64,000 bases of DNA from Clostridia bacterium. GTDB lineage: Bacteria > Bacillota > Clostridia > UBA1212 > UBA1255. The stretch covers positions 7,648 through 71,647 of the forward strand of contig JAEFAM010000002.1 of the NCBI GenBank assembly GCA_016287565.1, given 5' to 3'. The notes under the pieces were generated by a model. The model was not told the DNA's origin and searched no databases. It was given only the letters and a program-made list of their open reading frames with translations. Positions 4,801 to 51,394 of this stretch are shown here, piece after piece (the stretch's first letter is position 1; the number at the start of each line of letters is the position of its first letter). A program made the position numbers and the translations under genes.

Positions 4801-5786
4801 TCAGCCCCGCTCCCCCACGAACCTGATCTCCGGCTCCAGCATGACGCCAGAATCCGCGAACACCCGCTCTCTTACGGCGTCGACGAGTGCCCGTATGTCT
4901 GCGGCGGTGGCTCCTCCGCGGTTGACGATGAATCCGGCGTGTTTTTCGGACACCTGGGCGCCTCCCACTGCGAAGCCCTTCAGCCCCGACGCCTCGATGA
5001 GCCTTCCGGCGAAATCTCCGGGAGGCCTTTTAAAGGCGCTGCCGGCGCTGGGCAGTTCCAGAGGCTGCTTCTCTCTCCTGCGCCTGTTGAGTTCCCGCAT
5101 CTCGGCGGTGATGTCCATCTTAGAGCGGCCTTTCTTCAGGCGGAAATATGCTCCGGTGACGATAAAGCCGTTGTCCTGGTACGCGGAATGCCTGTACGAG
5201 AAGCCCTGGGCCTCCCCTTCCAGCGCGCCTTCGCGGACCGTCCCCGTGCCGTTGACCTCGTCTTTTACGATCTCGATATAATTGCTTTTTACGACGCACT
5301 GACAGAGTTCTCCGCCGTAGGCTCCGGCGTTCATCAATACTCCGCCGCCCACGGTCCCCGGTATCCCGGAGGCGAATTCCAGGCCGGTCAATCCCCTGTC
5401 GCACGCGAACGAGGCCACCGCGGACAATGCCGTTCCGCCGTACGCGTACACCAGCGCTCCTTCTTCGTCTTCTTCGATCAGTTCGGGTCCCGCGGCGCCC
5501 CGCTTTTCACCGTCGCAGAGCCTGATCACAACGCCCTTGAATCCGGCGTCGTCGAACACCAGGTTGCTGCCTCTTCCTATTACGTAAAAGGGAGCTCCTG
5601 CCCCGGCGGCCGTTTCGAGGGCGGCTTTAAGCGTTTCGGCGTTTCCGGCGTTGACCAGCAGATCCGCGGGTCCTCCCACCTTGAAAGTGGTACAGCGGGA
5701 GAGAGGCGCGTTCTTTTTTACGTTCGACGCGCCGCAGGCCTCCGCCAGTTTTTTGTAAAGTTCGGTGTTGTCCACGTTGTCCATCT
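4801..5786 (-). CDS. murB: UDP-N-acetylenolpyruvoylglucosamine reductase
   Basis: FAD-binding and MurB C-terminal motifs (TTFKVGGPAD...GRGSNL...GGATAADI). The track ORF of 412 aa carries an upstream extension that overlaps hprK. The internal ATG (MDNVDNTELYKK) at 5786 abuts the hprK stop. Confidence 0.85.
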
Positions 5787-5792
5787 CGTCTG

Positions 5793-6827
5793 TCAATAAT
5801 AGGGGCTGAAACCGCTGCCTCCCTCGGGAGCGCCGTTTTCGAATACCCTCTTGTTCAGTTCCTGAGCCGCGTTGTAGCCCATCATCTTCTGGCGGTTGTT
5901 CATGGTCGCCGCCTCGACTATCACTGCCAGATTGCGCCCCGGCATTACCGGTATGGTGACGCAGGGCACCTTGATGCCCAGTATCTCCGTGTAGGTGTCC
6001 TCGAGGCCTACGCGCTCGTATTCCTTGCCCTCCACCCATTTTTCAAGCTGGATCACCAGCTGGATGTTCTCCGTCATCTTGACCGCGCCCACGCCGTAGA
6101 GCCGCTTCACGTCGACGAATCCCACTCCCCGGATCTCGATCAGGTGGCGTATCACGTCGGGAGCGCTGCCTACCAGCGTCTTATGGGACACGCGGCGGAT
6201 CTCCACGATATCGTCCGCCACCAGCCTGTGGCCGCGCTTGATCAGCTCCAGCATGGTCTCGCTCTTGCCCACGCCGCTCTTGCCCCGGATCAGCACGCCT
6301 TCTCCGTATACTTCCACGAGGCCCGCGTGAACGGTCTTTCTTGGGGCAAGCTGCACGCAGAGGTATCTGTTTAGCTCGCTGTACAGCGCGGTGGTGGCAA
6401 TATCCGCTCCCAGCACCGGTATGCCGTGTTTTTCGCCCAGCGAAAGCATCTCCGGGAACGGTTCCAGGGACCGGGCAATTATCAGGCAGGGAAATCCCAT
6501 TTCGAACAGCTTAGCCAGCTTCTGCCTGCGCACGTCCTCGTCAAGGCTCTTCAGGTAGAGCATTTCGGAGTTCCCCATGAGCTGTATCCGGTCCCGGGTG
6601 AAATCTTCCGTGTAGCCGGATATCTCCAGCCCGGGCCTGTTGAGGTCGGGGGTAGATATCAGCACCTGAGAAGTCAGTTCTCCGCCGCAAAGGACGGTGA
6701 GCTGCATCTCGCTGATGATCTTGTCCAGGCTGACGCTGTAGGGCGCTTCCGAGAGCGCGCCTCCTTCGCCGCTGCCGTTATTGTCTTCGATATTGACGCT
6801 GCCGTCCATTTCCTTATCGGGGCTCAT
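5793..6827 (-). CDS. hprK: HPr kinase/phosphorylase
   Basis: Walker A GVLIRGKSGVGKSE and the HprK C-terminal signature LVADD...EIRGVG. Start chosen at ATG (MSPDKEM) rather than the longest ORF. The N-terminus is extended relative to the Bacillus enzyme. Confidence 0.8.
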   Translation of the reverse strand: MSPDKEMDGSVNIEDNNGSGEGGALSEAPYSVSLDKIISEMQLTVLCGGELTSQVLISTPDLNRPGLEISGYTEDFTRDRIQLMGNSEMLYLKSLDEDVRRQKLAKLFEMGFPCLIIARSLEPFPEMLSLGEKHGIPVLGADIATTALYSELNRYLCVQLAPRKTVHAGLVEVYGEGVLIRGKSGVGKSETMLELIKRGHRLVADDIVEIRRVSHKTLVGSAPDVIRHLIEIRGVGFVDVKRLYGVGAVKMTENIQLVIQLEKWVEGKEYERVGLEDTYTEILGIKVPCVTIPVMPGRNLAVIVEAATMNNRQKMMGYNAAQELNKRVFENGAPEGGSGFSPYY

Positions 6828-6900
6828 ATGCGTTTCATCCACTCTCCCGCCTCGTCCTTTCCAAGCTTCCATGCGTTGCCGCGCCGCCCGGTCCGGACCC

Positions 6901-7590
6901 TTAGATTATTATAAATACTATCAGCAGCACCACGGCCACGCCTATCACGACGCCGCCTATCCGCTTGTAAATATCCATATCGTGCCACTCGGGTATCTCG
7001 TCTTCTCCCTTGCGCTTGAAGAAGTGCCACAGTTCCTCCGCAAAGAAGATTATGAGCGCGCCGCCCGCGGCCACCGCCGCCACTATAATGGCCTGGGTCA
7101 CCGTGAGCAGAGGCTTTTTACCGAATATCATCGTGAGGAAAACGTTTTTGCTGAACCGTTCGAAAGGCGCTTCTTCGTAATTATCGTCGAAGCCCTCTAC
7201 AAGTTCGTAATCCACCTGAGCCGTCTTCTTGGTCTCGCCGCTGACGTAGTAGGTATACGCGTAGGGCTCCAGGGTGTAGTCCGGCATCTCGTCGGTCTGG
7301 TCGATGTCGATCTCGCTATCGTCGCGCTCCACGGGGATCCGGATGTTCATCACTATACTGTAAACGCCGTCGTCCGACTGGGTCAGGCGCCCCTCCATCA
7401 CGCGGGTGTCAACGAAATAAAACTCGTAAAGGGTAACGTCGCCGCCGCTGCCGGTGCCGGAATCGCGCACGTAGCGCACGTAATCCACCACGCCGGTGTG
7501 ATTGTCGCCGAAAGTGCGCGTCAGGAGAGTCAGCAGGCTCAAGACCAGCAGACAGACCATCAATATCGCCACGTTGCGTCCTTTGTTCAT
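6901..7590 (-). CDS. Hypothetical membrane protein
   Basis: One N-terminal and two C-terminal hydrophobic helices with an acidic middle region. No known motif. Confidence 0.5.
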   Translation of the reverse strand: MNKGRNVAILMVCLLVLSLLTLLTRTFGDNHTGVVDYVRYVRDSGTGSGGDVTLYEFYFVDTRVMEGRLTQSDDGVYSIVMNIRIPVERDDSEIDIDQTDEMPDYTLEPYAYTYYVSGETKKTAQVDYELVEGFDDNYEEAPFERFSKNVFLTMIFGKKPLLTVTQAIIVAAVAAGGALIIFFAEELWHFFKRKGEDEIPEWHDMDIYKRIGGVVIGVAVVLLIVFIII

Positions 7591-7610
7591 TGTCTCTCCC
7601 GCCGCCGGAC

Positions 7611-8840
7611 TCAGTCCAGCATATTCCTTTCAAGGGCCGATTCGTAAAGGGCCCTGGCCGTTTCCACGCTGTCTTCCCCTGTTTTGTTTTTCAGGGGGGC
7701 AAACTCGTCTTCTCTTCTGACGCGCAGGATGCCCATCTCCGGGTACCTGCAGAAAGCGTCGAATATGAACGCTTCGAACTTGTACGCGTTGGGCTTATCC
7801 GGGACAACGACCTCTCCCGCGCCGTTGACGAACTGCGTCTTCTTCACGGCCACGTGGTAAGGCAGCCCTTCCGCCCCCGCATCTTTCAGCGCGTCAACGC
7901 TGAAAATGTTGCACAGTATGTGCGCGTCTCCATAGATGAAATCGCCCCGGGCGTCCGTGGCCCTGGCCATCTCGTCGGATATTTCCGTATATTCTACTAC
8001 GTATGGCCTTCCGTCCCTGAGGCAGAAGACTCCGGCTTTCTCGTAAGGATCGCGCTTGATGAGGGACTTGCCGGCGCAGGGGTAGCCGTTCAGGGAGGCG
8101 AAGCCGATGAACAGCGGGTCGCAGAGCTTCACCAGCACGTTGTCGATGCCGCCTACGAAAGCGTACCTGATGCCGCGCTTTTCCATATCGCGGATAACGC
8201 CCCGCCTGTCCATTGCCCGGAAGATGCCTCCGTGGCCGTCGGCGCCCATCTTGATGCTGTCCGGCCTGTCCCGGACGATCCTGCCTTCAAAGTCGAGCAT
8301 GGGTAGCATGAACTGGGTGAAGAAAAATACGTTGTCCCTGTCGTAGCCGAAATAAGCGTTGTCCTCGAAGAACCGCCTGGTGGCGCCGTCGTTTTCCTCG
8401 CTGGTCATTATATACCAGGGGATCTGGCGTCCGCCTCCGGATGATGCGGCGCGTCGAAGGAGCCTCGAAGCCTGTATCTCGAACAGGGAATGCTCCCGGA
8501 CGCCCAGGTCGAAGGTGCCTTTGGGGCCCGTGTGGCCCAGCCTGGTGCCCTGGCCCCCTGCCATAGTCACCGAAGCGAAAGCGCCTTCGCGGATGAGCCT
8601 CTCCCCTTCCGCCACGTATTTAGCCCTGACTCCCTTCGGGAGCTCCTCGGCCACCGTGACGGGTATGGGAGTGATGTTGCCCTCGTCCGGACGTGCGCCT
8701 TCTCTGGCAAGGCGGTACAGGCCGGAGACCAGTTCAAGATCGATGCCCGCCAGCTTCTCCGCCGCGTCAACCGTTCCCAGAAGCTGTCCCTGACCTGCCT
8801 CTTCAAGTTCTTTTTTCAGCTTTTCTGTGTCAATGACCAT
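7611..8840 (-). CDS. UDPGP-family sugar-1-phosphate uridylyltransferase (UDP-GlcNAc/UDP-glucose pyrophosphorylase type)
   Basis: MAGGQGTRLG nucleotide-binding signature of the eukaryote-type UDPGP family. Confidence 0.7.
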   Translation of the reverse strand: MVIDTEKLKKELEEAGQGQLLGTVDAAEKLAGIDLELVSGLYRLAREGARPDEGNITPIPVTVAEELPKGVRAKYVAEGERLIREGAFASVTMAGGQGTRLGHTGPKGTFDLGVREHSLFEIQASRLLRRAASSGGGRQIPWYIMTSEENDGATRRFFEDNAYFGYDRDNVFFFTQFMLPMLDFEGRIVRDRPDSIKMGADGHGGIFRAMDRRGVIRDMEKRGIRYAFVGGIDNVLVKLCDPLFIGFASLNGYPCAGKSLIKRDPYEKAGVFCLRDGRPYVVEYTEISDEMARATDARGDFIYGDAHILCNIFSVDALKDAGAEGLPYHVAVKKTQFVNGAGEVVVPDKPNAYKFEAFIFDAFCRYPEMGILRVRREDEFAPLKNKTGEDSVETARALYESALERNMLD

Positions 8841-8845
8841 TCCGC

Positions 8846-10507
8846 TTACCTGTTGATCATGAAAGCTCCCGCGGGGTTGCCCTCGCTGTTGGCCAGGTTG
8901 ATCTCCACGCCGAAGTAGTTCTCGGAAATGGCGTTGTAGGCCAGGCCCTTAAGTTCGTAAGAAGCTTTGACCTCGACCGTGTCCTTGCCGGTGATCTTGG
9001 CGGTGACTTCCTTCTTGTTGAGGGTGTCGTCCGCCACGAGGCCCAGGAAGCCCTTGACGCTGGAATCGCCGTCGATAGTCTTCAGCCCGTCGCCCACGTT
9101 CTTGAACTTCACGGTGGCGGTCTTGCCGTCGGAGCTGTAGGTGATGGATTCGATGATGGGGCCGGTGGCCTTTTCCATCGTCATGCCGCCTTCGCCGTTG
9201 ACCGCCATGGCGATCTTGGCGCCGCGGAGCGCCTGCTCGGCCTTGCAGTTGGGATGGAGGCTGTTCCAGTACGTCTTGTCCGCCCATACGTCGGAAGATA
9301 CGATCTGGTAGCTGTTGGGCAGCTTCGTGACGATCTCGCCCATCTTGGCCCTGATCTTGCCGATGTCCATGTAAGCCCACTGGGAAGCGCCGGTGGTGTT
9401 GGGATAGATGGAGGGGAACTCCACGAAATAAACCGCGAAGTCTTTATTGATGAGGTTGTGGGTGCCGCGCATGTAGTTCATAAGTTCGCAGAACGTCACC
9501 ACGTATTTGGCGGTGAGGGCCTCAGTGAAGTCGCTCTCGCCCTGGTACCAGATAATGCCGGCCATGGCCATGCGCTCGAAGGGGTACATATACTCGTTGT
9601 ACATATATCTGCCCGCGTCCGCGTTGACGCCGGAAGTGACGTAGTATTTCTTCTTGGAGTTGAAGGTGTCGGTCTTGCATTTCTCGGCCACTTCGTTGCT
9701 GACGAAAGCTCCGATGGGAAGGCCGTTGCCGTCGATCTCGATGACGCCTACGGGCACGCCGGTGGCTTTAACGTAATCGGCCGCGAACATATATCCGATG
9801 GCGGTGAAGGGATTGGCGACGGCGGTGGTGGCTTTTCTCCACTTGGAATTGTTGGCCACGTCCTTGTTCACGTCGGTGGTGCCTCTCTTGAGCTTGGTGG
9901 GAGCGCCGGCGGTGTTGTAGTGGAGCCTGATGGGAAGCTCCTTGTCGATGGTCTTCATGCCGTACTTTTCAGCGTCGTTTTTGTCAACGAACTGCCAGTG
10001 GTTGGCCATGCTGTACGCGCAGTTGGACTGGCCGATGCACATGTAAACGTCGCCCACGAGAATGTCTTCAAGGACAACTTCCTTGGTATCCGTGTAGATG
10101 CGCATGTTGTTGCCCGGTTCGGCGTTGGCAGCCAACTTCTTCTTGAAGGTCAGCACCCATTCTCCGTCAACTATCTCGGCTTCGGTGAACATGCCCATGA
10201 ACTCGCCGGAAACTTTTTTACCGTTCTCGCTCTCGTCTGCCCAGCCCCATACTCTGATGTGCTCTCCGCGCTGCACCACCATATCCTTGGTGAACGCCTT
10301 GGCAACGGTGAAGTCCGCGGCGTACTCCAGCGGCAGCGGATCGTCTATGCCTGTTTCGGGCACTTCCGTGGGAGCCTCTGTGGGTTCCTCGGTGGGTTCC
10401 GCAGGCTCGGTGTTCTTTGGCTCATCCGTATTGCCCGTGGAGCAGGCGGCAACGCCCAGCAGCATGGCGACGGCCAGCAGCATACTTAAGATCCTGATCT
10501 TTTTCAT
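8846..10507 (-). CDS. SASA/DUF303-family carbohydrate esterase (sialate-O-acetylesterase-like) lipoprotein
   Basis: Lipoprotein signal (LLGVAACS). GQSN block (CIGQSNCAYSM) and IIWYQGESD block typical of SGNH/SASA esterases. The start ATG overlaps the alr stop (ATGA). Confidence 0.65.
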   Translation of the reverse strand: MKKIRILSMLLAVAMLLGVAACSTGNTDEPKNTEPAEPTEEPTEAPTEVPETGIDDPLPLEYAADFTVAKAFTKDMVVQRGEHIRVWGWADESENGKKVSGEFMGMFTEAEIVDGEWVLTFKKKLAANAEPGNNMRIYTDTKEVVLEDILVGDVYMCIGQSNCAYSMANHWQFVDKNDAEKYGMKTIDKELPIRLHYNTAGAPTKLKRGTTDVNKDVANNSKWRKATTAVANPFTAIGYMFAADYVKATGVPVGVIEIDGNGLPIGAFVSNEVAEKCKTDTFNSKKKYYVTSGVNADAGRYMYNEYMYPFERMAMAGIIWYQGESDFTEALTAKYVVTFCELMNYMRGTHNLINKDFAVYFVEFPSIYPNTTGASQWAYMDIGKIRAKMGEIVTKLPNSYQIVSSDVWADKTYWNSLHPNCKAEQALRGAKIAMAVNGEGGMTMEKATGPIIESITYSSDGKTATVKFKNVGDGLKTIDGDSSVKGFLGLVADDTLNKKEVTAKITGKDTVEVKASYELKGLAYNAISENYFGVEINLANSEGNPAGAFMINR

Positions 10508-13539: not shown

Positions 13540-13815
13540 CTGTGCAAAGTGATCTTCGCCTGCGGCGAGTGATCTTCGGCCTGACGGCCGAGTGATATTG
13601 CGCGGGGCGCAGTGATATTCGCCATACGGCGAGTGGTGTTGCGCGGCGCGAGCAGCTAAATTCGACTTCGTCGAGCGAAATTGAACCCTGACTGTTTAGC
13701 GGGGCTTTTCAGGGTTCAGCTAAATGCGACTTCGTCGCGCTAAATTCGTGCTGTCACACGAGCTAAATTCCGCATTGCGAGCAGTGAAATTCGACTTCGT
13801 CGAGGAAAATTGATC
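13540..13815. repeat. Array of mini-hairpins separated by the conserved octamer GTGATATT/GCTAAATT (top-strand orientation)
   Basis: About 12 units of roughly 20 nt. Each is an 11-16 nt palindrome (for example CGCCTGCGGCG, TGCGCGGGGCGCA, CGACTTCGTCG) followed by GTGATCTT, GTGATATT, GCTAAATT or GTGAAATT. Confidence 0.8.
13681..13719. repeat. Conserved hairpin class 2 (TTGAACCCTGA-loop-TCAGGGTTCAG) followed by CTAAAT
   Basis: 10-bp stem with a 19-nt loop. The same stem with a different loop occurs at 21208..21245. Confidence 0.7.
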
Positions 13816-14189: not shown

Positions 14190-14644
14190 ATTTAGCCGAA
14201 GCAGCAGGCTTCGATTTAGCTGTGAGCGCCAGCGAACAATTTAACTGAAGGCCGCAGGTTCCATTGTCTCTGAAAGCCTGCGGTCTTCAGTTTCACTCGC
14301 GCGCCAGCGCGAATTTAGCTCGGCCGTCAGGCCGAATTTAACTGCCGCAAAGAGGCAATTTAGCTTGACGAAGTCGAATTTAGCTGCTCGCCTCGCAAGC
14401 AATTTCGCTCGCGCGTCAGCGCGAACATCACTCCGCGAAGCGGAATATCACTTGCCCGCAGGGCAAATATCACTCGCGCGCCAGCGCGAATTTAGCTCGG
14501 CCGTCAGGCCGAATATCCCTCGCCGCAGGCGAATATCACTCGGCTCCAGTCTGACGTCAGGCCGAATATCCCTCGCCGCAGGCGAATATCACTCGGCTCC
14601 AGTCTGACGTCAGGCCGAATATCACCGCGGCTCCCACCTGCTCC
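14190..14644. repeat. Array of mini-hairpins with octamers AATTTAGC/AATATCAC (opposite orientation to 13540..13815), ending in 2.5 copies of a 59-bp unit
   Basis: Units such as CTCGCGCGCCAGCGCG-AATTTAGCT, CGGCCGTCAGGCCG-AATATCCCT and CGCCGCAGGCG-AATATCACT. The 59-bp unit contains the palindrome CTGACGTCAG. The array abuts the GH3 stop codon. Confidence 0.8.
14247..14288. repeat. Conserved hairpin class 1 (GAARRCCGCAGGYT-CCATTGTCTCTGAAA-AGCCTGCGGYYTTC)
   Basis: 14-bp stem. The loop is identical to the copy at 26787..26828 and differs by one nucleotide (CCATTGTCACTGAAA) from the copy at 24584..24625. Stem differences between copies are compensatory. Confidence 0.8.
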
Positions 14645-19319: not shown

Positions 19320-21122
19320 TCATTTGTAAAGCGGCCCGAAGTTCTTGCAGGCCCGGAAATCGGCGCCTTCCTTGTCCATGCCGAAAGCGTTCCAGGCGGC
19401 GGGACGGAATATGTCTTTGTCGGGGACGTTGTGCATGCACACGGGTATTCTCAGTATGGAGCAGAGCGTGATCAGATCTGCGCCGATGTGGCCGTAGGAG
19501 ATGGCTCCGTGGTTGGCGCCCCAGTTGTTCATTACACTGTACGCGTCTTCGAAGGGGCTGCCGGACCTGCCGTCGCAGCGTGGCGTGAACCAGGTGCAGG
19601 GCCAGGTAGGATTGGTGCGTTCCATCAATATATCCGTGACTTCGTCGGGCAGTTTTACGGTCCAGCCTTCCGCGATCTGGAGCACGGGGCCCAGGCCTTT
19701 GACCAGGTTAAGGCGGATCATCGTGGCAGGCATTTCGGCCCTGGTGACGAAGTGGCTGGAGAAGCCGCCTCCGCGGAAATTGTCGAAGCCGGCCTCGCAC
19801 CAGACGGTGGCGGCGGTCATCTTTTCGATGTCTTCGTCGTTGACCTCCCACCAGCGTTTCATCAGGTGATTGCCCTCGGCGTCGGTGGCCTCTCCGCAGG
19901 CGTCGAGACAGGCGGCGCCGGAGTTGAGCAGGTGGATTATGCCACCGTTCTCCCTGGCCTTGCCCTGGAATTCGTAATTCGCCACCCGTTTTACGGCGTC
20001 GGGAGACCAGTAGGTGCGCACGTCGGCGAATATCTGGGCGCGGCCGGTGAGCAGCTTCATAAAGAGCATCCCCATGCCGTTCAGGATGTCGTTTTCGGTG
20101 GCAAGCACGTAGGGCTCCCTGGCGCCTTCAAAGTCGAAGGAGGAGTTCAGCAGCGCCTCGGGATAGTCGCAGTTGGGCCAATGGTCTGTCCACTGGCGCT
20201 GTCCCTGGAAGCCGGCGGCGATGGCGTTGTGGCCGGAAGCTTCTTCTTTGAACTGCGGAGGCAGCCGGTCGCTTCCGCCCATGAGGTCGCGGATGATCAG
20301 ATACATTTTTACGGTGAATTCCCACTGTTTTTTCTTCTGTTCGGGAGAGAAACGCACGAAATCCGGGTTGTCGTCCCGGCCTTCCTTACAATGTTCGAAG
20401 GTCCAGGCCAGCGCCCGCTCGTAATCCTCTTTGTTGTATATCCCCTCTTCCATGCGCCTGAGTATCTCAACTTCGTCAACGGATTCCACCCGCATGCCGA
20501 AGTAGTCCTCCATAAACGCCTGGTCCATTATCGACCCGCCGATGCCCATCGTCACCGAGCCGATCTGGAGATACGATTTGCCCCGCATGGACGCCGCGGC
20601 AACGGCTGCCCTGCCGAACCGCAAAAGCTTCGCGGCAACGTCGTCGGGTATCCTGTCCACGTCTCCCACGTCCTGCACTTCGTGCCCGTATATCCCGAAG
20701 GCAGGCAGCCCTTTCTGTGCGTGTGTGGCAAGCACGGATGCCAGATACACCGCTCCGGGCCGCTCCGTGCCGTTGAAGCCCCAGACCGCCTTTATAGTAT
20801 GCGGGTCCATATCCATGGTCTCTGATCCGTAGCACCAGCAGGGCGTCACGGTCAACGTGATGTCCACTCCTGCTTTTCTGAATTTCTCCGCACACGCCGC
20901 GGATTCCGGCACCCGGCCAATGGTCGTGTCCGCCACGATGACCTTCACGGGCTCCCCGTTCGAATAGAAAAGGTTCTCCTCGAACAGCTTCTTCGCCGCC
21001 AGGGCCATGGCCATGGTCTGGTCCTCCAGGCTCTCTCTCAGCCTCATTGGCCCCCGTCTGCCGTCAATAGTCGGTCTGATGCCTATCACCGGTTCTCCGC
21101 CGATAAGTCGCTGCTTTTTCAT
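19320..21122 (-). CDS. fucI: L-fucose isomerase (also acts on D-arabinose)
   Basis: N-terminus [26 protein letters not shown] matches E. coli FucI ([31 protein letters not shown]). About 600 aa, as for FucI. Confidence 0.85.
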
Positions 21123-21205: not shown

Positions 21206-21325
21206 TGTTGAACCCTGATATGTTGTCAGAAAATTCAGGGTTCAGCTAAATTCGTCCTGACGAACGAGCGGAATTCGTCCTGGCGGGCGGGCGAAATTGC
21301 TCGCGTGGCGAGCGGCTCTTGTTTA
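21206..21325. repeat. Class-2 hairpin plus a short mini-hairpin/octamer array in the fucI upstream region
   Basis: TTGAACCCTGA-20 nt-TCAGGGTTCAG, then CTAAATT-CGTCCTGACGAACGA-GCGGAATT-CGTCCTGGCGGGCGGGCG-AAATTG-CTCGCGTGGCGAGCGG. Confidence 0.7.
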
Positions 21326-21517
21326 AATCGTTGTATTTCTTTTTGGAACGTCCGCTTCTGACGAATGGGATGAAATCAACAGGTTTGTAAGAAACGCAAG
21401 GCCAAGATCCAGGAATCAAACGCTATTGTCAGCGCTCGATTGACCCTGAACTTGCTTTTCACACCCGCTTGCCGATAAAATATTGACAACGAATGAACGC
21501 GCAGAAAGGGCTCGGAT

Positions 21518-21724
21518 ATGATCAGGAAGATAGACGTGCCCGCAGAGGCCATGGTGGAATTAAAAAGACGCCGAGATCATAATAACCGGATCGATAATCT
21601 ACAGGATCAAAACGTGGATACCACCGTCATTCCGGAAGTATCCGATTCTGTTAAAAACCAGTTGAGAAAAGATTTTAAAAAGGACATGCAAGGATATGCG
21701 ATTTTTTGTCGTCACATTATTTGA
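21518..21724 (+). CDS. Small hypothetical protein (68 aa) in the low-GC leader of the sigma-factor operon
   Basis: ORF only. Weak RBS, no motif. Could be non-coding. Confidence 0.25.
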   Translation: MIRKIDVPAEAMVELKRRRDHNNRIDNLQDQNVDTTVIPEVSDSVKNQLRKDFKKDMQGYAIFCRHII

Positions 21725-21760
21725 AAGGGATCAGGAGACGAAATTATCCAGGGAGAAACA

Positions 21761-22345
21761 ATGACAGGCCTGACAAGTGATATTTACAACAACATAACTG
21801 ACGAAGAGATAATTGCCATGCTCGAGGGACGGGACGAAATGGCAATGGGATTACTGGAATCCAGATTCCGTAATCTTATACGAAGCACTTCTGTCCGGAT
21901 CCTCGGGAATGAGCAGGACGCGGAGGAGTGCGTCAATGATGTGCTGCTGAAGATCTGGAACAGTATTCCGCCGAACAAACCATCGAATTTAAAAGCATAC
22001 GTGGCTGTCGCGGCCAAAAACAACGCGATCGATCGTTATAAAGCGCAGCGGCGCAAGGGCCGGATCCCTCCGGAAAAACTGGAACCGCTGGAAACTGCAG
22101 ACAACATCGGAGTGTTAGATATTGACCGGGATGATAAAGAAACTGTTGCCGCGCTGATAGCCGATTATTTAAACGGAGTCAGCTCTGAAAAAAGAAAGTG
22201 CTTCATTGCCAAATTCTATTTCGGGGCAAAAGATTCCGAGATAGCAAGGAAAGCAGGAGTGCCTGTGGGGACTGTTTCATCGACATTGAGCAGGATGCGT
22301 AAGGAACTGATTAAAAAACTGAAAACGGAAGGAATAAGGTTATGA
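21761..22345 (+). CDS. ECF-subfamily RNA polymerase sigma-70 factor
   Basis: Region 2 (ECVNDVLLKIWNSI) and region 4 HTH (SEIARKAGVPVGTVSSTLSRMRKEL). GGGAGAAACA-ATG ribosome-binding site. Confidence 0.8.
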   Translation: MTGLTSDIYNNITDEEIIAMLEGRDEMAMGLLESRFRNLIRSTSVRILGNEQDAEECVNDVLLKIWNSIPPNKPSNLKAYVAVAAKNNAIDRYKAQRRKGRIPPEKLEPLETADNIGVLDIDRDDKETVAALIADYLNGVSSEKRKCFIAKFYFGAKDSEIARKAGVPVGTVSSTLSRMRKELIKKLKTEGIRL

Positions 22346-24375
22346 AAAACAAAAAGCTGAAAGAATATATGAAATATTTGCCTCAGGAGATGCTGTCTGA
22401 GGCCGAGGAATTTGTTCCGTCCGTCCCAGAAGTGAGTTCTTCATCCGCCGGCAGGGCGAAGAAGTTTTTTGGCTCGACCGCGTTCAGATTTGCTGTCGAA
22501 GCTTTGGTGGTCGCGGCTTCGCTGGCTGCAGGGATAATTATTGCTATCCGGTTAAGTAAACCCGACAGTCAGGATAAAGGAAACGAAACGACGATATCAG
22601 AGGGGACAGAAGCGCCGACGCAGGCCGGGCAGGTTACTGCTGCTCCGACGGAGATTCCGACGATGCTTCCGGCAACACCGGCTGAAACTACTGCCGCCAC
22701 GTCAACGACGACAGTGCCTCCTACCGCGACGCCGACGAAATTGCCTTCTTCGGAGACGCCCGTCGAGGTGGTACCCACTGCGACGTCAACTGTAACAACA
22801 CAGACGACTGTTCCGCCGACAGCGACACCGACAGCCGTACCTCCGACAGCGACATCAACCGCCGCACCGACTGCTTTGCCTCCTACAACTACGCCGACGA
22901 AAGCGCCTTATACCGCTGCTCCGACCGCAGTTCCGCCGACCGCGACCCCGACTGCCGCACCTCCGACGACGGCGCCTGCTACAGTACATCCGGACTGGTT
23001 TTCAGGACCTGAGGCAACGGTAAGGCCAGACCATATTGCCCCGGAAGGAGCAGCGGAATACATTATATTGCCGACGAAAAACACCAGATCGGAGTTGTTC
23101 CCGGATGTTCTTCCGGAATCAGTGAAGCTTGACGGTGACAAAGCATATTTCAACGTCCGCAGCAGGATCGAAACGGTCCTGATAGACGAAACCGGCATGA
23201 TGTACTTTTTAAAAGGCGAAATGTATATCGACCAGATATACCTTTGCGACGTAACGCGGAACGGAAACAGCATAATACTCACAGCGAAAAGCATACATTT
23301 CAGGCTGAAATGCACTTCAAATGAAGATTACAATGCGCTGGTGTTTACGGTAAAATACCAGGAAGACTCAGTGGGCAGTAACGTTCAATGTGTTAAAGAG
23401 TTACTTGCCGGAAAGCTATATTACGATTTCTCCGCAGGAAAATGGAATTCGCTGCTGCTCCCGGGACCGAACGTTGTAAACGAATTGACTCTGAACCTCG
23501 GCGGTACCGAGGGGTATCCTGCCGTAATCGACACCTCGAACGCATCAGGCGGTACATCCTCAATAACCAGCTTCCGTTATGAATTTGACGGTTCCGGAAA
23601 ACTCAGCAGTTATGCTAAAATTTTCGGAGCCTGCAGATATGAGCAATATTTTGAGAACGGGATACTTGTACGCGAATATACGGTGAACAGTTCAGACAGT
23701 TCGACTGAAAAAATATACAATCTGGAAGGGATCGACCTGTATACACGGATCATTAACGGAGACACCGAGACCGTCCGGGAACGGTACAAAGACCGTGCGG
23801 ATCTGGTTTATGAGACAGTCAAGATAAAGAAGAAGGAAAGTGATACCAGATCGACGTATACCGAAAATGTATATTGTTATAAAAACGAGAGCCGTACGGA
23901 AACGTTTCTGTACAAGAATACTGTGACAACGTATTATTCTAACGAATGGCAGACGGTTACAACTAAAACGTATCGTCCTGACGGCCAGGAGCTTAGCAGT
24001 ATTACGGATTTTGGCAACGGGTCGTGTTCCGAGATATTGTATGTGTATCGTGATTCCGGTGTGATCGCAGAAAAAACGACCATAATTACGGAAAACGGCC
24101 TGCGCAATCGGTATACTCTGCTAAGATATAACGAAAAAGGAAAAGCGATCTATTATTTTGATGAGCTTCGATATTCCGACGACGAATTGCACTACTCCGA
24201 AGATCACTATTATGATTCCGGTCGGGCAAGGATCGAAAGAAGATATGCGACCAACGGCGGAATGGATCCGAATGATCCTCCGTACAACTATTACCGTTAT
24301 TATGACGAGGCGGGCAATATAATCAGATCCGGCGTCGTTGCCTACGTCAATGGCGAGTGGATCGAGGATCCGTGA
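22342..24375 (+). CDS. Single-pass membrane protein co-transcribed with the ECF sigma (putative anti-sigma/sensor) with a Pro/Thr-rich linker and an extracytoplasmic YD-repeat (RHS-like) domain
   Basis: ATGA overlap with the sigma gene. One TM helix (FAVEALVVAASLAAGIIIAI). A PT-rich linker of about 170 aa (VPPTATPT repeats). C-terminal YD-type repeats (KTYRPDGQELS, HYYDSGRARIERRY, YRYYDEAGNIIRSG). The second half has lower GC. Confidence 0.65.
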   Translation: MKNKKLKEYMKYLPQEMLSEAEEFVPSVPEVSSSSAGRAKKFFGSTAFRFAVEALVVAASLAAGIIIAIRLSKPDSQDKGNETTISEGTEAPTQAGQVTAAPTEIPTMLPATPAETTAATSTTTVPPTATPTKLPSSETPVEVVPTATSTVTTQTTVPPTATPTAVPPTATSTAAPTALPPTTTPTKAPYTAAPTAVPPTATPTAAPPTTAPATVHPDWFSGPEATVRPDHIAPEGAAEYIILPTKNTRSELFPDVLPESVKLDGDKAYFNVRSRIETVLIDETGMMYFLKGEMYIDQIYLCDVTRNGNSIILTAKSIHFRLKCTSNEDYNALVFTVKYQEDSVGSNVQCVKELLAGKLYYDFSAGKWNSLLLPGPNVVNELTLNLGGTEGYPAVIDTSNASGGTSSITSFRYEFDGSGKLSSYAKIFGACRYEQYFENGILVREYTVNSSDSSTEKIYNLEGIDLYTRIINGDTETVRERYKDRADLVYETVKIKKKESDTRSTYTENVYCYKNESRTETFLYKNTVTTYYSNEWQTVTTKTYRPDGQELSSITDFGNGSCSEILYVYRDSGVIAEKTTIITENGLRNRYTLLRYNEKGKAIYYFDELRYSDDELHYSEDHYYDSGRARIERRYATNGGMDPNDPPYNYYRYYDEAGNIIRSGVVAYVNGEWIEDP

Positions 24376-24469
24376 ATTTGATCTTCTTTCGAGAGGGAAA
24401 CAGCAAATGTTAGTTAAAGGAACAAAAGCGCCGGATCTCACACTTCCGGACCAGAACAAAGTCATTGGT

Positions 24470-24655
24470 ATGCGCGAAGGAAATATTTAGCCGCTCGCCA
24501 CGCGGGCAACATCACTCCGCGAAGCGGAATTTCGCTCGCGCCAAAGCGCGAATTTAGCTGGATCCGCAGGCTTCAATTTAGCTGAAAACCGCAGGCTCCA
24601 TTGTCACTGAAAGCCTGCGGTTTTCAATTTAGCTCGGCATAGAGGGCTATCACTT
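24470..24655. repeat. Mini-hairpin/octamer array plus a class-1 hairpin between convergent genes
   Basis: CCGCTCGCCACGCGGGC-AACATCACT-CCGCGAAGCGG-AATTTCGCT-CGCGCCAAAGCGCG-AATTTAGCT-GGATCCGCAGGCTTC-AATTTAGCT-[class-1 hairpin 24584..24625]-AATTTAGCT. Confidence 0.8.
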
Positions 24656-26739: not shown

Positions 26740-26856
26740 TGCGCATGGCGCGCAGTGATATTGCTCGCGTTGTGAGCAGCGAAATTGAAAACCGCAGGCT
26801 CCATTGTCTCTGAAAGCCTGCGGTTTTCAATTTCACTCGCGCGTCAGCGCGAACGC
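26740..26856. repeat. Class-1 hairpin flanked by inverted octamers, immediately downstream of trkH
   Basis: CAGTGATATTG...GCGAAATT-[GAAAACCGCAGGCT-CCATTGTCTCTGAAA-AGCCTGCGGTTTTC]-AATTTCACT-CGCGCGTCAGCGCG. On the minus strand the hairpin is followed by UUUUC, so it may also act as the trkAH terminator. Confidence 0.75.
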
Positions 26857-38749: not shown

Positions 38750-39275
38750 AAATTTAGGGGCGGGGCGCAGTGATATTCTGCTTCGCAGAGTGATATTGCG
38801 CGGGGCGCAGTGATATTGTGCTTCGCACAGCTAAATTACTCGCTTGCGCTCGCAGCTAAATTGCGTGCAGGGCACGCAGCTAAATCGAAGCCGTCCGGCT
38901 TCGGCTAAATTGACCTTCGGTCAGCTAAGCTCGGTTGCGGCGAGTGATATTGCGCGAAGCGCAGTGATATTCTGCTTCGCAGAGTGATATTGCGCGGGGC
39001 GCAGTGATATTCTGCTTCGCAGAGTGATATTGCGCGGGGCACAGTGATATTGTGCTTCGCACAGCTAAATTACTCGCTTGCGCTCGCAGCTAAATTGCGT
39101 GCAGGGCAAATTAAGCTGTTCGCGCCAGCGAACGATATCACTCGGCGAAGCCGAACATCACTCGCACGCAAGTGCGAATATCACTGCGAGTGTTAACGAG
39201 CAATATCACTTGGCGTAGCCGAACATCACTCGCACGCCGGTGCGAATATCACTGCTCATACCAGCGAGCAACAGG
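38750..39275. repeat. Large mini-hairpin/octamer array that switches orientation near 39115 (GTGATATT/GCTAAATT units, then GATATCACT/GAACATCACT units)
   Basis: Units of about 20 nt: TGCGCGGGGCGCA-GTGATATT, CTGCTTCGCAG-A-GTGATATT, GTGCTTCGCAC-AGCTAAATT and so on. A 150-bp block (38760-38910) is duplicated at 38950-39110. The right arm reads CGGCGAAGCCG-AACATCACT, CGCACGCAAGTGCG-AATATCACT. Confidence 0.8.
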
Positions 39276-44169: not shown

Positions 44170-44640
44170 CCTGTTGTTAGTGGGAAACGGGAAATGGCAA
44201 GTGGCAAATGGCAAGTGGGAAATGGAAAATGGCAAATGGCAAGTGGGAAATGGAAAATTATATTTTCCTCATTTTCAATCTGCACTTCTCGCTTTGCGTT
44301 TTTCAATTTCCGATTTGCAATTTCCAATTTGCAATTCTCAACTGGCAAGTGGGAAATGGCAAGTGGCAAATGGCAAATGGGAAATGATAATATCCTTTTC
44401 TCCTTTTCGATTTTCAACTATTCACTTGCAATTTGCAATTTCCAATTTGCAATTTTCTATCTTCCCCTTTTAATTTGCAATTTGCAATTTCCAATTTGCA
44501 ATTTTCAATTTGCAATTTCCAATTGTCACTTCGCAACTTTTAATTTGCAATTTGCCATTTGCAATTTGCAATTTTCAATTTGCAATTCTCCATTTGCCAT
44601 TTGCCATTTGCCATTTGCAATTTGCAATTTGCAACTAATC
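44170..44640. repeat. 470-bp intergenic block of heptanucleotide tandem repeats G[CG]AA[AG]TG alternating with complementary-orientation blocks CAATTT[GC]/CATTTGC
   Basis: Block 44175-44265 is (GCAAGTG/GCAAATG/GGAAATG/GAAAATG)n. Block 44300-44335 is (CAATTTC/CAATTTG)n. Block 44336-44385 is again (GSAARTG)n. Block 44420-44640 is (CAATTTG/CCATTTG)n. The track ORFs here (44025..44417, 44158..44679, 44174..44473, 44559..44771) are repeat translations. Confidence 0.85.
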
Positions 44641-49207: not shown

Positions 49208-50077
49208 ATGTTTGCCAACCGGAAAATTGCCCGCGTAAACGGGAACGAAAACAGAAGATTCGGTACGGTATGCCGCCGGACCTTATTAGTATTGTCCTCG
49301 CTGCTGCTTTTAGCCGCGTTCTTTGCCGCGCCGTTCACGTCGAACGTTATGGCGGACAATAAAAAGAAGATCGATTTCTGCGACGGCACGATGCAGAGCA
49401 ATCCCCGGCCTTTCAACTACTACGGGAGCGTGGGATTCAGGTTCGAAATACCGGAAGGATTCAAGCTGGATCAGTTCGACCTCCTTGCCTGCCCCACGTG
49501 GGGAGAACGGGCCAACGCCGGATTCACGGCGGATATCTACCCCTGGAAGGGCTCCTATAAAGAATCCGTCACCGGCTACCCTCTGGACAGCTGCGTCATT
49601 ACACAGCACAGGGACAATGCCGGCATAACGCTCACTTACGACTACGTTCCCGCCGGCGAATACCTCATCCACATCTACAAATTTACAGATACGATCGGGA
49701 CCTGGGAATTCGTGGCGCTCCCCGAACAATACGCTTCCACATGGGCCTACTACCAGGACGGCGTCGAGGAGATCGAATACCTCCCGGGGACCAGCATGGT
49801 CGTCAGTTTCGATAAGAACCCTCACGAGGTCTATCCCCGGACTCCGGCGCCCACCGAAGAACCTGCAGGCGACGGCGCTGAAGATGAGCAGGCTACCGAC
49901 GTACCGGTACATACCAGGGAAAGGATAACCGAGGAGCCGAAGGAAGCGGCAGATGAGAAGCGCTCCGGCGCGGGAGGCATCATAGCGGGAACGGCGGTGG
50001 CGCTGCTGGCCGTGGCGGCGACGCTCGTAACGATCGGAATTATTGTCCGCAAAGATAAAAAAGACGCGAACGTTTAA
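49208..50077 (+). CDS. Surface-anchored protein of a local paralogous family (signal peptide, conserved about 110 aa domain, acidic linker, C-terminal TM anchor)
   Basis: Domain FNYYGSVGFRFEIPEGFKLDQF...YDYVPAGEYLIHIYKFTDTIGTW is homologous to the second domain of 50120..51394. C-terminal TM IIAGTAVALLAVAATLVTIGIIV. Confidence 0.6.
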   Translation: MFANRKIARVNGNENRRFGTVCRRTLLVLSSLLLLAAFFAAPFTSNVMADNKKKIDFCDGTMQSNPRPFNYYGSVGFRFEIPEGFKLDQFDLLACPTWGERANAGFTADIYPWKGSYKESVTGYPLDSCVITQHRDNAGITLTYDYVPAGEYLIHIYKFTDTIGTWEFVALPEQYASTWAYYQDGVEEIEYLPGTSMVVSFDKNPHEVYPRTPAPTEEPAGDGAEDEQATDVPVHTRERITEEPKEAADEKRSGAGGIIAGTAVALLAVAATLVTIGIIVRKDKKDANV

Positions 50078-50119: not shown

Positions 50120-51394
50120 ATGAAAAAAATCTGTGCGATCATTGTCGCGGCAGCGATCCTGCTGGGCCTCTTCGGAGCTGTAAACGCAGGGGCAGCCTCT
50201 TCGTACGTCAGCCAGGACGATTTCGACGGTACCATCCGCGGACAGGCGCTGGACATCATCAGAGGCGACGGCGTGGATCTCTACACGCCCGGCCAGACCG
50301 GCGACTACCTCGTCAGCACGAAGAACACTATTTACGGACCTTACCAGACCGTTACCATGCGCGGCTGGATCGGCGTTGAAGATACCGAGATCAAGCAGTT
50401 CGGATACGTCATCGGCGACGGCGAGCCCGTGTTCAGCGACGATTTCTTCACCGAGACCGAAGCCGCGGTGCTTGGAGCCGGCGGCGACTACGCGCTGCGT
50501 TATATGGTGACCATGGACGTTTCCGGCCTGGGAGAAGAAGAGACGCTGCTCATGCCCGTAGTCAAACTTGAAGACGGCACCGTTCTGGCAGTCACCTTCA
50601 ACCAGATCAAGTACACCACCAAGCCCGAGCCCGTAGAAGAAAAGCCCGTCATCATGCAGCTGAACAACGGCAACACCAGCACGCCCTTCAACTTCAGCGG
50701 CCATATAAGCGTAGGTTACAGATTCACCATTCCCGAGGGATACAAGCTCGATACCTTCACCGTGGTGCAGTCCCCCACCTGGAACGGCCCCAACACCGGC
50801 ATCGGCCTGATCGCCTCCATTTACAGATGGGTCAACGACGATTATGAAGACACCATCGACCAGGATCCCCTCGGCGTATTCGAAGAAGAGGATCACAAGG
50901 ACAACGCCAACCTGATCGTTTCCTACGACTACATCCCCGCCGGCGAGTACCTCATCGAACTCACCGAATTCACGGGCAACATCGGCGGCTGGATGGCTGC
51001 CCAGAAGACCGCCGAATACGAGGATATGTTCCACGCCTACGTTGACGAAGAAGAAGTGGACGACTGCGTGCTCGTCAAGATGTCCATAGTGGTGGACAAC
51101 GATCCTCCGGCTCCCACGGAAGTTCCCACCGAGAAACCCACCCAGGCGCCTACCGAAGTTCCCACCGAAGATCCCGCCACCGAGGCTCCCACGGATGCTC
51201 CCGCCACCGAAGAACCCGCCACCGACGCTCCCGTTGCCACCGAGAAGGCCGACGACGATACGGGCGACAAGGACAATAAAGACGAGACCAAGTCCGGCGC
51301 CAATACCGGCCTGATCATCGGCATCATCGCGGCACTAGTCGTAGTGGCAGCCGTCGCGGCAATCATTATCATCTCCAAGAAGAAAAAGAAATGA
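50120..51394 (+). CDS. Surface-anchored two-domain protein of the same paralogous family
   Basis: Signal peptide. Domain A (QTVTMRGWIGVEDTEIKQFGYVIGDGEPVF) resembles 58942..60186. Domain B (FNFSGHISVGYRFTIPEGYKLDTF...YDYIPAGEYLIELTEFTGNIGGW) resembles 49208..50077. PT/E-rich linker and C-terminal TM plus KKKKK. Confidence 0.6.
   Translation: MKKICAIIVAAAILLGLFGAVNAGAASSYVSQDDFDGTIRGQALDIIRGDGVDLYTPGQTGDYLVSTKNTIYGPYQTVTMRGWIGVEDTEIKQFGYVIGDGEPVFSDDFFTETEAAVLGAGGDYALRYMVTMDVSGLGEEETLLMPVVKLEDGTVLAVTFNQIKYTTKPEPVEEKPVIMQLNNGNTSTPFNFSGHISVGYRFTIPEGYKLDTFTVVQSPTWNGPNTGIGLIASIYRWVNDDYEDTIDQDPLGVFEEEDHKDNANLIVSYDYIPAGEYLIELTEFTGNIGGWMAAQKTAEYEDMFHAYVDEEEVDDCVLVKMSIVVDNDPPAPTEVPTEKPTQAPTEVPTEDPATEAPTDAPATEEPATDAPVATEKADDDTGDKDNKDETKSGANTGLIIGIIAALVVVAAVAAIIIISKKKKK

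Follow-up and report, generated by a model that had tools for sequence, protein, structure and literature searches.

Is a membrane protein encoded directly behind a sigma factor gene the anti-sigma factor of that gene's product or a surface protein that merely shares its transcript, and what is the large domain that it exposes outside the cell? We addressed these questions for a pair of genes on a 64,000-nucleotide stretch of a Clostridia bacterium genome (assembly GCA_016287565.1, contig JAEFAM010000002.1, positions 7,648 to 71,647; hereafter the window). The pair consists of two plus-strand open reading frames (ORFs), 21761-22345 (194 aa) and 22342-24375 (677 aa), which share a 4-bp ATGA stop/start overlap. 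The initial annotation of the window had placed a sigma factor of the extracytoplasmic function (ECF) group and a membrane protein of anti-sigma topology at exactly these positions, with the same overlap, and had read the outside part of the second protein as a Pro/Thr-rich linker followed by YD (RHS-type) repeats. Among bacterial signalling mechanisms, ECF sigma/anti-sigma pairs rank as the third major one. To our knowledge, hardly any have been characterised in gut and rumen Clostridia, where the partner proteins escape all current anti-sigma domain (ASD) models. We find that the locus, a cassette low in guanine plus cytosine (GC), probably encodes an ECF sigma factor that controls its own operon and a cognate anti-sigma factor that is anchored in the membrane and has a minimal non-zinc tail. 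The RHS/YD interpretation of the outside domain does not stand.

A predicted ECF sigma factor and its candidate promoter

Judged by its domain content, the product of the first gene (21761-22345, + strand) is an ordinary stress-type ECF (group 4) sigma factor of the sigma-70 family. Pfam recognises Sigma70_r2 (9e-11, 41.8 bits, cutoff 24) and Sigma70_r4_2 (4e-7, 29.9 bits, cutoff 25.7) but no region 3, so that only regions 2 and 4 are present; the curated NCBIfam model TIGR02937 (sigma70-ECF) is matched at 64.3 bits against a cutoff of 42.9, and the length of 194 aa falls within the ~170-220 aa of the group. The ECF identity proposed at the outset is thereby upheld. None of the NCBIfam equivalog or subfamily models matched at cutoff, which leaves the protein unassigned to a named ECF sigma factor. 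We collected 462 homologs, mostly from metagenome-assembled genomes (MAGs) of Clostridia and Oscillospiraceae. Compared with a closely related copy of the locus in another assembly (L093, described below), the ratio of nonsynonymous to synonymous substitution rates (dN/dS) of the sigma gene is 0.23.

A candidate ECF-type promoter, TGCAAG-N17-CGTC (full match TGCAAGGATATGCGATTTTTTGTCGTC; 21687-21713, + strand), lies 74 nt upstream of the sigma start and is presumably autoregulatory. Its two elements lie 17 nt apart, like the -35 and -10 of ECF promoters, with CGTC in the -10 position, and the pattern TGnArG-N5-GC-N8-GTCGTC is kept upstream of 5/5 close-clade sigma genes, amid flanks that are otherwise unalignable. 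In a set of 49 non-redundant sigma genes the motif precedes 5, against a shuffle mean of 0.2, and these are the close clade plus one locus. Such confinement to a clade fits clade-specific promoter recognition and autoregulation. The exact motif occurs once in the 64-kb window, where no further copies were found; the lone site with one mismatch (17349) lies within a gene on the opposite strand, and its count is that of chance.

The partner protein and its pairing with the sigma factor

The 677-aa partner comprises a cytoplasmic tail of 46 aa, one transmembrane (TM) helix, a Pro/Thr stalk of ~130 aa and an outside domain (hereafter the ectodomain) of 462 aa. The tail (aa 1-46; 22342-22479, + strand) contains the conserved peptide KLKEYMKYLPQEMLSEAEEF, a motif kept in family members, and ends in a basic stretch; it has no Cys and no His. 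We presume that the tail is the sigma-binding, anti-sigma element. The single TM helix (aa ~47-72; 22480-22557, + strand) is Ala-rich (VVAASLAAG) and, according to hydropathy and positive-inside bias, of type II. We assign the N-in/C-out orientation because Lys and Arg are in excess on the N-terminal side of the helix: in 57 partner proteins, the 12 aa that precede the TM contain on average 4.0 of these residues, against 1.3 beyond it. The short cytoplasmic N-terminus followed by one TM helix, as first described, is thus supported by both hydropathy and charge.

The absence of an obvious zinc-finger anti-sigma domain had also been noted, and we can confirm it. Besides the lack of Cys and His in the tail, neither Pfam nor NCBIfam returned a match to any anti-sigma domain, including zf-HC2, DUF4179 and class I domains, even at E<=10. 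Among the 57 partners, no recognised anti-sigma domain was detected with Pfam at E<=1e-3. Searches of the 677-aa protein against Pfam, NCBIfam, PADLOC and PHROGs gave nothing informative.

The conserved overlap shows the two genes to be kept together across the family and, as far as gene arrangement can tell, translationally coupled through their ATGA. Each of the closest relatives of the sigma factor (98%, 70% and 61% identical) is encoded in 4-bp overlap with a homolog of the 677-aa protein, at loci that sit in differing neighbourhoods. The same arrangement, a sigma gene upstream with a 4-bp overlap, is found for the more distant ectodomain relatives P0123, P0125, P0127 and P0130. In all, nine contexts of TM-bearing ectodomain homologs were recovered (the window, L093, L087, L085, L090, L095, the partial L096, L098/L099 and L100), and all have the 4-bp overlap with a sigma gene. 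A further 80 loci, from MAGs of Oscillospiraceae, Ruminococcus and other Clostridia that are largely of ruminant and human gut origin, encode sigma relatives at 29-41% identity. Nearly all of these have an overlapping partner with an N-terminal peptide, a basic stretch and one TM, the latter at residues ~27-63, followed by an outside part of 190-1233 aa. Anti-sigma partners of ECF groups are usually single-pass proteins (PMC7826278). The adjacency and conserved co-occurrence expected of an anti-sigma gene are found in nine homolog contexts and in ~80 distant sigma relatives, and the initial description of an overlapping downstream gene of anti-sigma topology gains comparative support.

The N-terminal peptide of the partners follows the pattern hydrophobic-xx-hydrophobic-xx-hydrophobic-[D/P]-[D/E]-x-hydrophobic-[I/L]-x-E-A, and a strict regular expression for it matches 25/57 partners, where shuffled sequences gave a mean of 1.7. 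The ectodomains of the partners are mutually unrelated and include Peptidase_M23 (7), DUF4901 (5), BspA leucine-rich repeats (LRR), a beta-propeller, DUF4349, a serpin and RHS_repeat (L041). Because the ectodomains differ, the cytoplasmic peptide and the TM emerge as the conserved sigma-linked element. A peptide and TM that travel with the sigma gene in this way appear to be the signature of an anti-sigma module.

Two further observations concern the partners as a group. Seven loci (L016, L024, L026, L029, L035, L048 and L051) form a sub-clade with the N-terminus MKKLNxALNEVxDxYIEEA, whose partners bear one to three external Peptidase_M23 domains and reach up to 1233 aa; by domain content, these are sigma-tethered peptidoglycan hydrolase-like proteins. 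In addition, the pattern AA[C/S/A/G] occurs inside the TM of 46/57 partners, and A-A-C specifically in 28/57 (alignment A4). We rejected a lipoprotein reading of this 'AAC', as too few hydrophobic residues precede the Cys, the helix runs on beyond it and the protein of the window has AAS. Lipobox-like in appearance but placed too early in the hydrophobic stretch, A-A-C may be a packing or intramembrane-cleavage determinant.

Beyond the membrane, the stalk (aa ~85-215; 22594-22986, + strand) is rich in Pro, Thr and Ala, varies in length and is made of imperfect 27-nt repeats, with tandem repeats at 22706-22868. It differs from its L093 counterpart by an 18-aa repeat indel and has a dN/dS of 0.56. 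The Pro/Thr-rich linker of the initial annotation is thus present, but with ~130 aa it is shorter than the ~170 aa claimed.

The outside domain and the question of YD repeats

If the outside part were an RHS/YD domain of the kind that forms the shells of Rhs proteins, Tc toxins and teneurins, it could serve as a sensor or as a toxin-delivery shell. Sequence searches did not bear this out. Neither RHS_repeat (PF05593) nor the YD model TIGR01643 matched the window protein (E<=10) or any of 10 relatives (E<=5), whereas E. coli RhsA, used as a positive control, gave RHS_repeat at 1.5e-68 in 11 stretches and a match to the RHS core model. Profile-profile alignment of the family with RhsA by hhalign yielded a probability of 2.6%. 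The YD dipeptide is present 3 times in aa 216-677, the number expected by chance (shuffle mean 2.85), compared with 19 occurrences in RhsA where 5.3 are expected. A single unit, FRYEFDGSGKL (aa 411-421), fits the canonical YD core Y.[YF]D..G.[LIVM]. We found no RHS core in the partner, that is, neither the DP.G[LIVM] motif nor a PF03527 match, both of which RhsA has, and no C-terminal toxin: the partner stops 1 residue past its last strand. Sequence searches of the PDB, with a single sequence and with a profile, gave nothing significant, the best hit being a teneurin-like protein at E 0.74.

We then consider the predicted structure. Modelled with AlphaFold2 (AF2) on an alignment of 10 sequences, aa 216-677 reach a mean predicted local distance difference test (pLDDT) score of 88.4 and a predicted template modelling (pTM) score of 0.77. 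The model contains a membrane-proximal alpha/beta subdomain (aa 216-375; 22987-23466, + strand), made of a long curved hairpin sheet and two helices, for which no known fold match was found. There follows a Tyr-rich beta-hairpin meander of ~24 consecutive antiparallel strands (aa 377-676; 23470-24369, + strand), whose turns alternate between 2-residue (NG/GD) and 5-residue D/N-x-x-G-x loops and which terminates in a conserved YYRYYDEAGN...VNGEWIE. Foldseek ranks a teneurin (8fia, E 2e-8), RhsA (7q97, 8e-8), Tse15, Tse5 and TcdB2-TccC3 at the top.

This ranking speaks for an RHS/YD domain, as do the conserved FRYEFDGSGKL, with its weak alignments to teneurin-like proteins (E 0.74) and to one RhsA repeat, and the distantly related partner of L041, which has a genuine RHS_repeat and to which hhalign finds a weak match (34%, 47 columns). 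The resemblance to YD shells is nevertheless local, at the level of hairpin geometry. With RhsA, the TcB/TcC components of Tc toxins and the teneurins, the ectodomain shares Tyr-rich hairpin strands, D-x-x-G turns, local 3Di similarity (Foldseek E to 2e-8) and the single canonical YxFDxxGxL unit. It differs from them in having ~300 aa of hairpins rather than at least 700 aa, in forming an open sheet rather than a closed cocoon, and in lacking homology at the level of hidden Markov models (HMMs), the core/autoprotease motif, the plug and the toxin domain. No closed beta-shell was found, and 300 aa of hairpins are too few to close a YD cocoon. We regard an RHS/YD shell at this locus as very improbable and conclude that the ectodomain is not an RHS/YD family member and resembles YD repeats only in the geometry of its hairpins. 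More generally, Tyr-rich hairpin repeats with D-x-x-G turns need HMM or fold support before they are read as RHS/YD shells.

L041 itself is a separate case, with a real short YD-repeat ectodomain on an anti-sigma-like protein. Its partner gene (6543-8621, Oscillospiraceae MAG SIG620) encodes a short YD array in the last ~250 residues, with units such as YEYDEQGRVIRK; RHS_repeat scores 42.7 bits against a cutoff of 22, and the protein is without RHS core or toxin. The initial remark that a YD-type sensor on an anti-sigma-like protein would be unusual has to be tempered accordingly, as L041 carries a real one and the ectodomains of the wider family are very varied.

According to the model, the ectodomain of the window protein is a novel alpha/beta cap joined to a single-layer-like hairpin sheet that recalls OspA and MORN proteins. 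The closest of such proteins are the central sheet of OspA, the TCP domain of CPAP/SAS-4, MORN1 and the Pfam family MORN_2 ('YwqK'); unlike them, the ectodomain has a cap subdomain without counterpart and occurs in an extracellular, sigma-coupled context. MORN_2 (PF07661) itself stayed below threshold, with sub-threshold matches in 7/10 relatives and a best score of 21.3 against 29.6 bits.

The ectodomain family is very small, rare and previously undescribed. An exhaustive HMMER search of 1.84 billion cluster representatives returned 12 matches, of which 11 are true members, at 27-46% identity over the full domain, and a word-index search of 5.8 billion proteins gave essentially the query alone, with the index saturating on the composition of the ectodomain. 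Family members are annotated only as 'hypothetical protein' or 'dockerin type I repeat-containing protein [Clostridia bacterium]'. Between the window and the 94%-identical L093 copy, the dN/dS of the ectodomain is 0.14, a value that shows the hallmark of purifying selection. In P0124/P0135 (MCR5695082.1), a signal peptide and a type I dockerin (Pfam 4.4e-9) replace the tail, TM and stalk; P0135 is the only architecture without tail and TM, and it has no sigma gene upstream. Because this dockerin form lacks tail, TM and sigma gene, the ectodomain would work extracellularly on its own. In four other relatives (P0122, P0125, P0127 and P0131), the stalk and the conserved domain are separated by an extra module of ~200 aa, which has its own hairpin repeats and ends in a C-terminus-like Y-x-x-Y-Y-D-E-x-G-N…G-x-W; this shared terminal motif suggests an internal duplication of the terminal hairpin block.

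A low-GC cassette between unrelated genes

The region was initially noted for a GC content lower than that of its surroundings, and this is the case. GC is 0.45-0.47 at the locus (sigma gene 0.470, C-terminal domain 0.457, upstream intergenic region 0.448), against 0.56 for the 64-kb window and 0.58-0.60 for both neighbouring genes; the PT linker alone reaches 0.631. From GC content, blastn comparison with L093 and the surrounding contexts, we delimit a low-GC cassette of 3.1 kb (21445-24536, + strand) that holds a leader, the sigma gene, the membrane-partner gene and a 3' hairpin. Positions 21445-24536 of the window align by blastn with 5686-8829 of L093 at 94% nt identity, and the flanking genes are unrelated. 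In the window, the cassette lies between fucI and the gene of an AMP-dependent ligase; in L093, AraC, rhaA and araA-like genes border it to one side and acpS-ybbR-cdaA to the other. The cassette is thus a discrete low-GC segment in an uncultured gut Clostridia (Oscillospiraceae-like) genome, and the suspicion of acquisition is supported by the finding of a 94%-identical 3.1-kb cassette between unrelated genes in another assembly. A tblastn search of plasmid and phage sequences with the ectodomain gave no match, so that nothing there points to a plasmid or phage vehicle.

Two minor elements of the cassette lie outside the gene pair. A 68-aa leader ORF (21518-21724, + strand), called as a gene in public assemblies, contains the promoter motif. 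It has no family matches, an indel cuts its 94%-identical L093 copy to 48 aa, and its dN/dS of 0.41 derives from very few sites; it is probably not a conserved coding sequence. In the 3' region, a GC hairpin (24423-24448, no strand assigned), detected by a consensus scan only and conserved in L093, resembles a minus-strand terminator and may be bidirectional.

A working model and its alternatives

In the model that we favour, an N-terminal peptide of ~20-25 residues, probably two short helices split at L-P/I-D, would bind and sequester the sigma factor, the PT stalk would take the ectodomain through the cell wall, and the ectodomain would bind an extracellular ligand. A glycan or a plant or host surface component is our leading guess for this ligand, because of the dockerin paralog and the neighbouring sugar genes. 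Ligand binding or cleavage of the ectodomain would then set off regulated proteolysis, with a site-1 event first, an intramembrane S2P cut in the Ala-rich TM next and Clp degradation last, by which the sigma factor would be freed. The freed sigma factor would transcribe its own operon from TGCAAG-N17-CGTC, plus further targets.

Several points weigh against this model. No recognised ASD model matches the tail, which at 46 aa, ~25 of them conserved, is shorter than most characterised ASDs. Ectodomains that look like effectors rather than sensors, among them M23 peptidase, serpin and LRR adhesin, are numerous in the wider family, so that the partner could be a co-expressed surface protein. The 64-kb window has the promoter motif once only and thus reveals no member of a regulon. 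Finally, the glycan idea draws on one dockerin paralog and on sugar-gene neighbourhoods that are common in gut Clostridia.

The main alternative makes the partner a surface protein under the control of the sigma factor, such as an adhesin or binding module, that is co-transcribed without being an anti-sigma factor, its peptide serving in targeting, insertion or another cytoplasmic contact. The silence of the ASD models fits this view, as do the effector-like ectodomains of the wider family (M23 peptidase, serpin, BspA LRR, beta-propeller), the use of the same domain in a free dockerin protein, and a candidate promoter that precedes both genes and would make the partner at least a target. Targeting to the membrane, however, needs only a TM and flanking charges, whereas an acidic amphipathic peptide is common to partners with unrelated ectodomains and is always found beside the sigma gene with a 4-bp overlap. 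ECF sigma factors are, moreover, typically encoded with a single-pass anti-sigma factor (PMC7826278), and the dockerin form has lost tail, TM and sigma gene together. We therefore hold it rather unlikely that the partner is a co-transcribed surface protein and nothing else. It could also be thought that the pair is a generic envelope-stress module of the sigmaW/sigmaV/sigmaM type, with the ectodomain as a proteolysis-sensitive 'fuse' that has no specific ligand. Firmicutes ECF systems commonly answer envelope damage via regulated intramembrane proteolysis (RIP) (PMC8767453), the TM is Ala-rich and no ligand-binding fold was identified. A fuse of this kind would scarcely account for an ectodomain that is large, confidently folded, held at a dN/dS of 0.14 and reused as a cellulosome-type dockerin module, all of which argue for a specific extracellular interaction, and the neighbouring genes serve sugar catabolism, not the envelope; we judge this explanation distinctly improbable.

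The long ORF might, in principle, be spurious, or a pseudogene decaying from low-complexity PT-coding DNA, as its annotation is 'hypothetical protein' only and the family amounts to 12 clusters in 1.84 billion proteins. Yet homologs at 27-47% identity span the full 460-aa domain, dN/dS is 0.14, AF2 reaches a pLDDT of 88 from only 10 sequences and synteny with the sigma gene is conserved. This explanation is already refuted by these data, and the probability that we leave to it is negligible.

Relation to characterised sigma/anti-sigma systems

The favoured model places the locus close to the sigmaW-RsiW and sigmaV-RsiV systems of B. subtilis, in which Firmicutes anti-sigma factors undergo RIP via a site-1 protease, RasP and Clp (PMC8767453). 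As in those systems, a group 4 sigma factor with regions 2 and 4 has directly downstream in the operon a partner that crosses the membrane once, N-in/C-out, and whose extracytoplasmic part would do the sensing, and the candidate promoter is likely of the ECF type and autoregulatory. The Ala-rich TM is compatible with the S2P/Clp processing that we presume here. In contrast to RsiW and RsiV, the partner has no detectable class I ASD (three helices plus a fourth, often zinc-binding), zf-HC2 or DUF4179; its cytoplasmic part is 46 aa without Cys or His, and its ectodomain is unrelated.

ASDs of classes I-III have been described (PMC6101532). The tail is nearer in size to the two-helix clamp of class II (CnrY, NepR) than to a class I ASD, and its structural class is our guess from its length and from the position of the helix breaker. 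Like the class II domains, it would be a very short metal-free two-helix element, and in CnrY one TM follows. CnrY differs in being almost without ectodomain and in belonging to a proteobacterial three-protein system (CnrYXH).

A third point of reference is the sigmaI-RsgI family of C. thermocellum; clostridial RsgI sensors use autoproteolysis, RseP and ClpXP (PMC10328401, PMC12203970). In both systems, the sensing module of a membrane anti-sigma factor would recur on cellulosomal proteins that carry a dockerin, fibre-degrading Clostridia would have multiple paralogous pairs with differing ectodomains, and the signal would pass through the TM by proteolysis. Here, however, the sigma factor is a canonical ECF protein (r2 and r4_2) and not SigI, the partner has no RsgI_N (PF12791) match, and the ectodomain is not a known carbohydrate-binding, PA14 or glycoside hydrolase module.

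What is familiar at this locus is therefore the ECF sigma/anti-sigma pair, and what is unfamiliar is a minimal tail invisible to ASD models and a rare ectodomain with an unmatched cap. As a clean example, the locus joins a minimal tail for sigma tethering to a stalk and to a rare ectodomain that is modelled with confidence and also found on a dockerin protein. Should this ectodomain sense a ligand, it would be a new sensory module for fibre or host-glycan sensing in Clostridia, and the locus would also provide an orthogonal set of sigma factor, anti-sigma factor and promoter.

Hairpin arrays, sugar genes and other features of the window

Intergenic hairpin arrays are found in the window at 13548-13815, 14234-14627, 38768-39271, 21243-21302, 24480-24636 and 26778-26839, and in L093 at 5400-5690 and 8777-9070. 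Their unit of 20-25 nt consists of a short GC hairpin and a constant spacer (AATATCACT / GTGAAAT, or AGCTAAATT). The Rfam model of Gut-1 RNA (RF01706), with a gathering score of 50 bits, is matched above threshold in the window at 14397-14475 (66.1 bits), 38768-38841 (51.5 bits) and 38922-38995 (54.2 bits), and in L093 at 8861-8939 (66.1 bits) and 8948-9027 (59.9 bits), directly right of the cassette. At the right cassette junction of the window, a Gut-1 RNA-like hairpin array (24480-24560, - strand) scores 45.8 bits (E 4.6e-7), below the 50 bits of the model. To the left of the cassette lies a weak Gut-1-like array (21243-21302, + strand) of the AGCTAAATT/GAAATT spacer type, with 22.4 bits (E 0.38) in Rfam and a period of 23 nt in TRF; a larger array of the same type lies left of the L093 cassette. 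The window and L093 cease to be similar within the right-hand hairpin array, and both junctions adjoin arrays, which suggests relocation by recombination at, or insertion beside, the arrays. Gut-1 had been found only in human-gut environmental sequence, its host not being known (PMC2864571). Here it is present in a Clostridia MAG, where it lies at the border of the relocated sigma cassette and behaves as a tandem or dispersed repeat of variable copy number.

Genes of sugar metabolism recur beside the pair. An L-fucose isomerase gene adjoins it in the window (19320-21122, - strand) and in L098 (8433-10238); the two FucI proteins are 75% identical and the ectodomains <30%, the order and orientation of the genes differ, and L098 has in addition a transporter of the major facilitator superfamily (MFS). 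In L098, no promoter was found that the sigma gene has in common with the MFS-fucI genes. The recurring FucI adjacency may reflect a functional link to fucose/rhamnose glycans or be a synteny remnant. Other neighbours are rhamnose and arabinose-type isomerases in L093, a pectate-lyase-fold protein and a solute-binding protein in L085 and L090, and F5/8-type-C proteins in L095, L098 and L099. We treat this neighbourhood as a lead only, such genes being everywhere in gut Clostridia.

A broader reading would join three propositions, which we put forward tentatively and consider doubtful as a whole. The peptide and Ala-rich TM would constitute an undescribed minimal class of ECF anti-sigma factors, widespread in gut and rumen Clostridia, that tethers dedicated sigma factors to interchangeable ectodomains, from M23 peptidases, a serpin, BspA LRRs and beta-propellers to short YD arrays and hairpin sheets. 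The ectodomain would be a new binding or sensing family at the level of its fold, shared with a cellulosomal dockerin protein, and may report fucose/rhamnose glycans. The cassette may move between Gut-1 arrays, in which case this 'environment-only' RNA would gain a host and could mark a hotspot of recombination or insertion.

Elsewhere in the window, a low-GC region with PT repeats at 49-52 kb was checked as a possible second sigma cassette and is not one. It is another low-GC island on the + strand, which is not sigma-associated and encodes two adjacent paralogous secreted proteins (49208-50077 and 50120-51394). These have in common a domain with the motif F-N-[FY]-x-G-x-[IV]-[GS]-[FY]-R-F-x-I-P-E-G-[FY]-K-L-D, a PT/E-rich linker and a C-terminal TM anchor. 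A further low-GC stretch (0.47), at 44181-44634, is filled with dense 7-nt repeats (TGGCAAA / TTGCAAT) in up to 30 copies.

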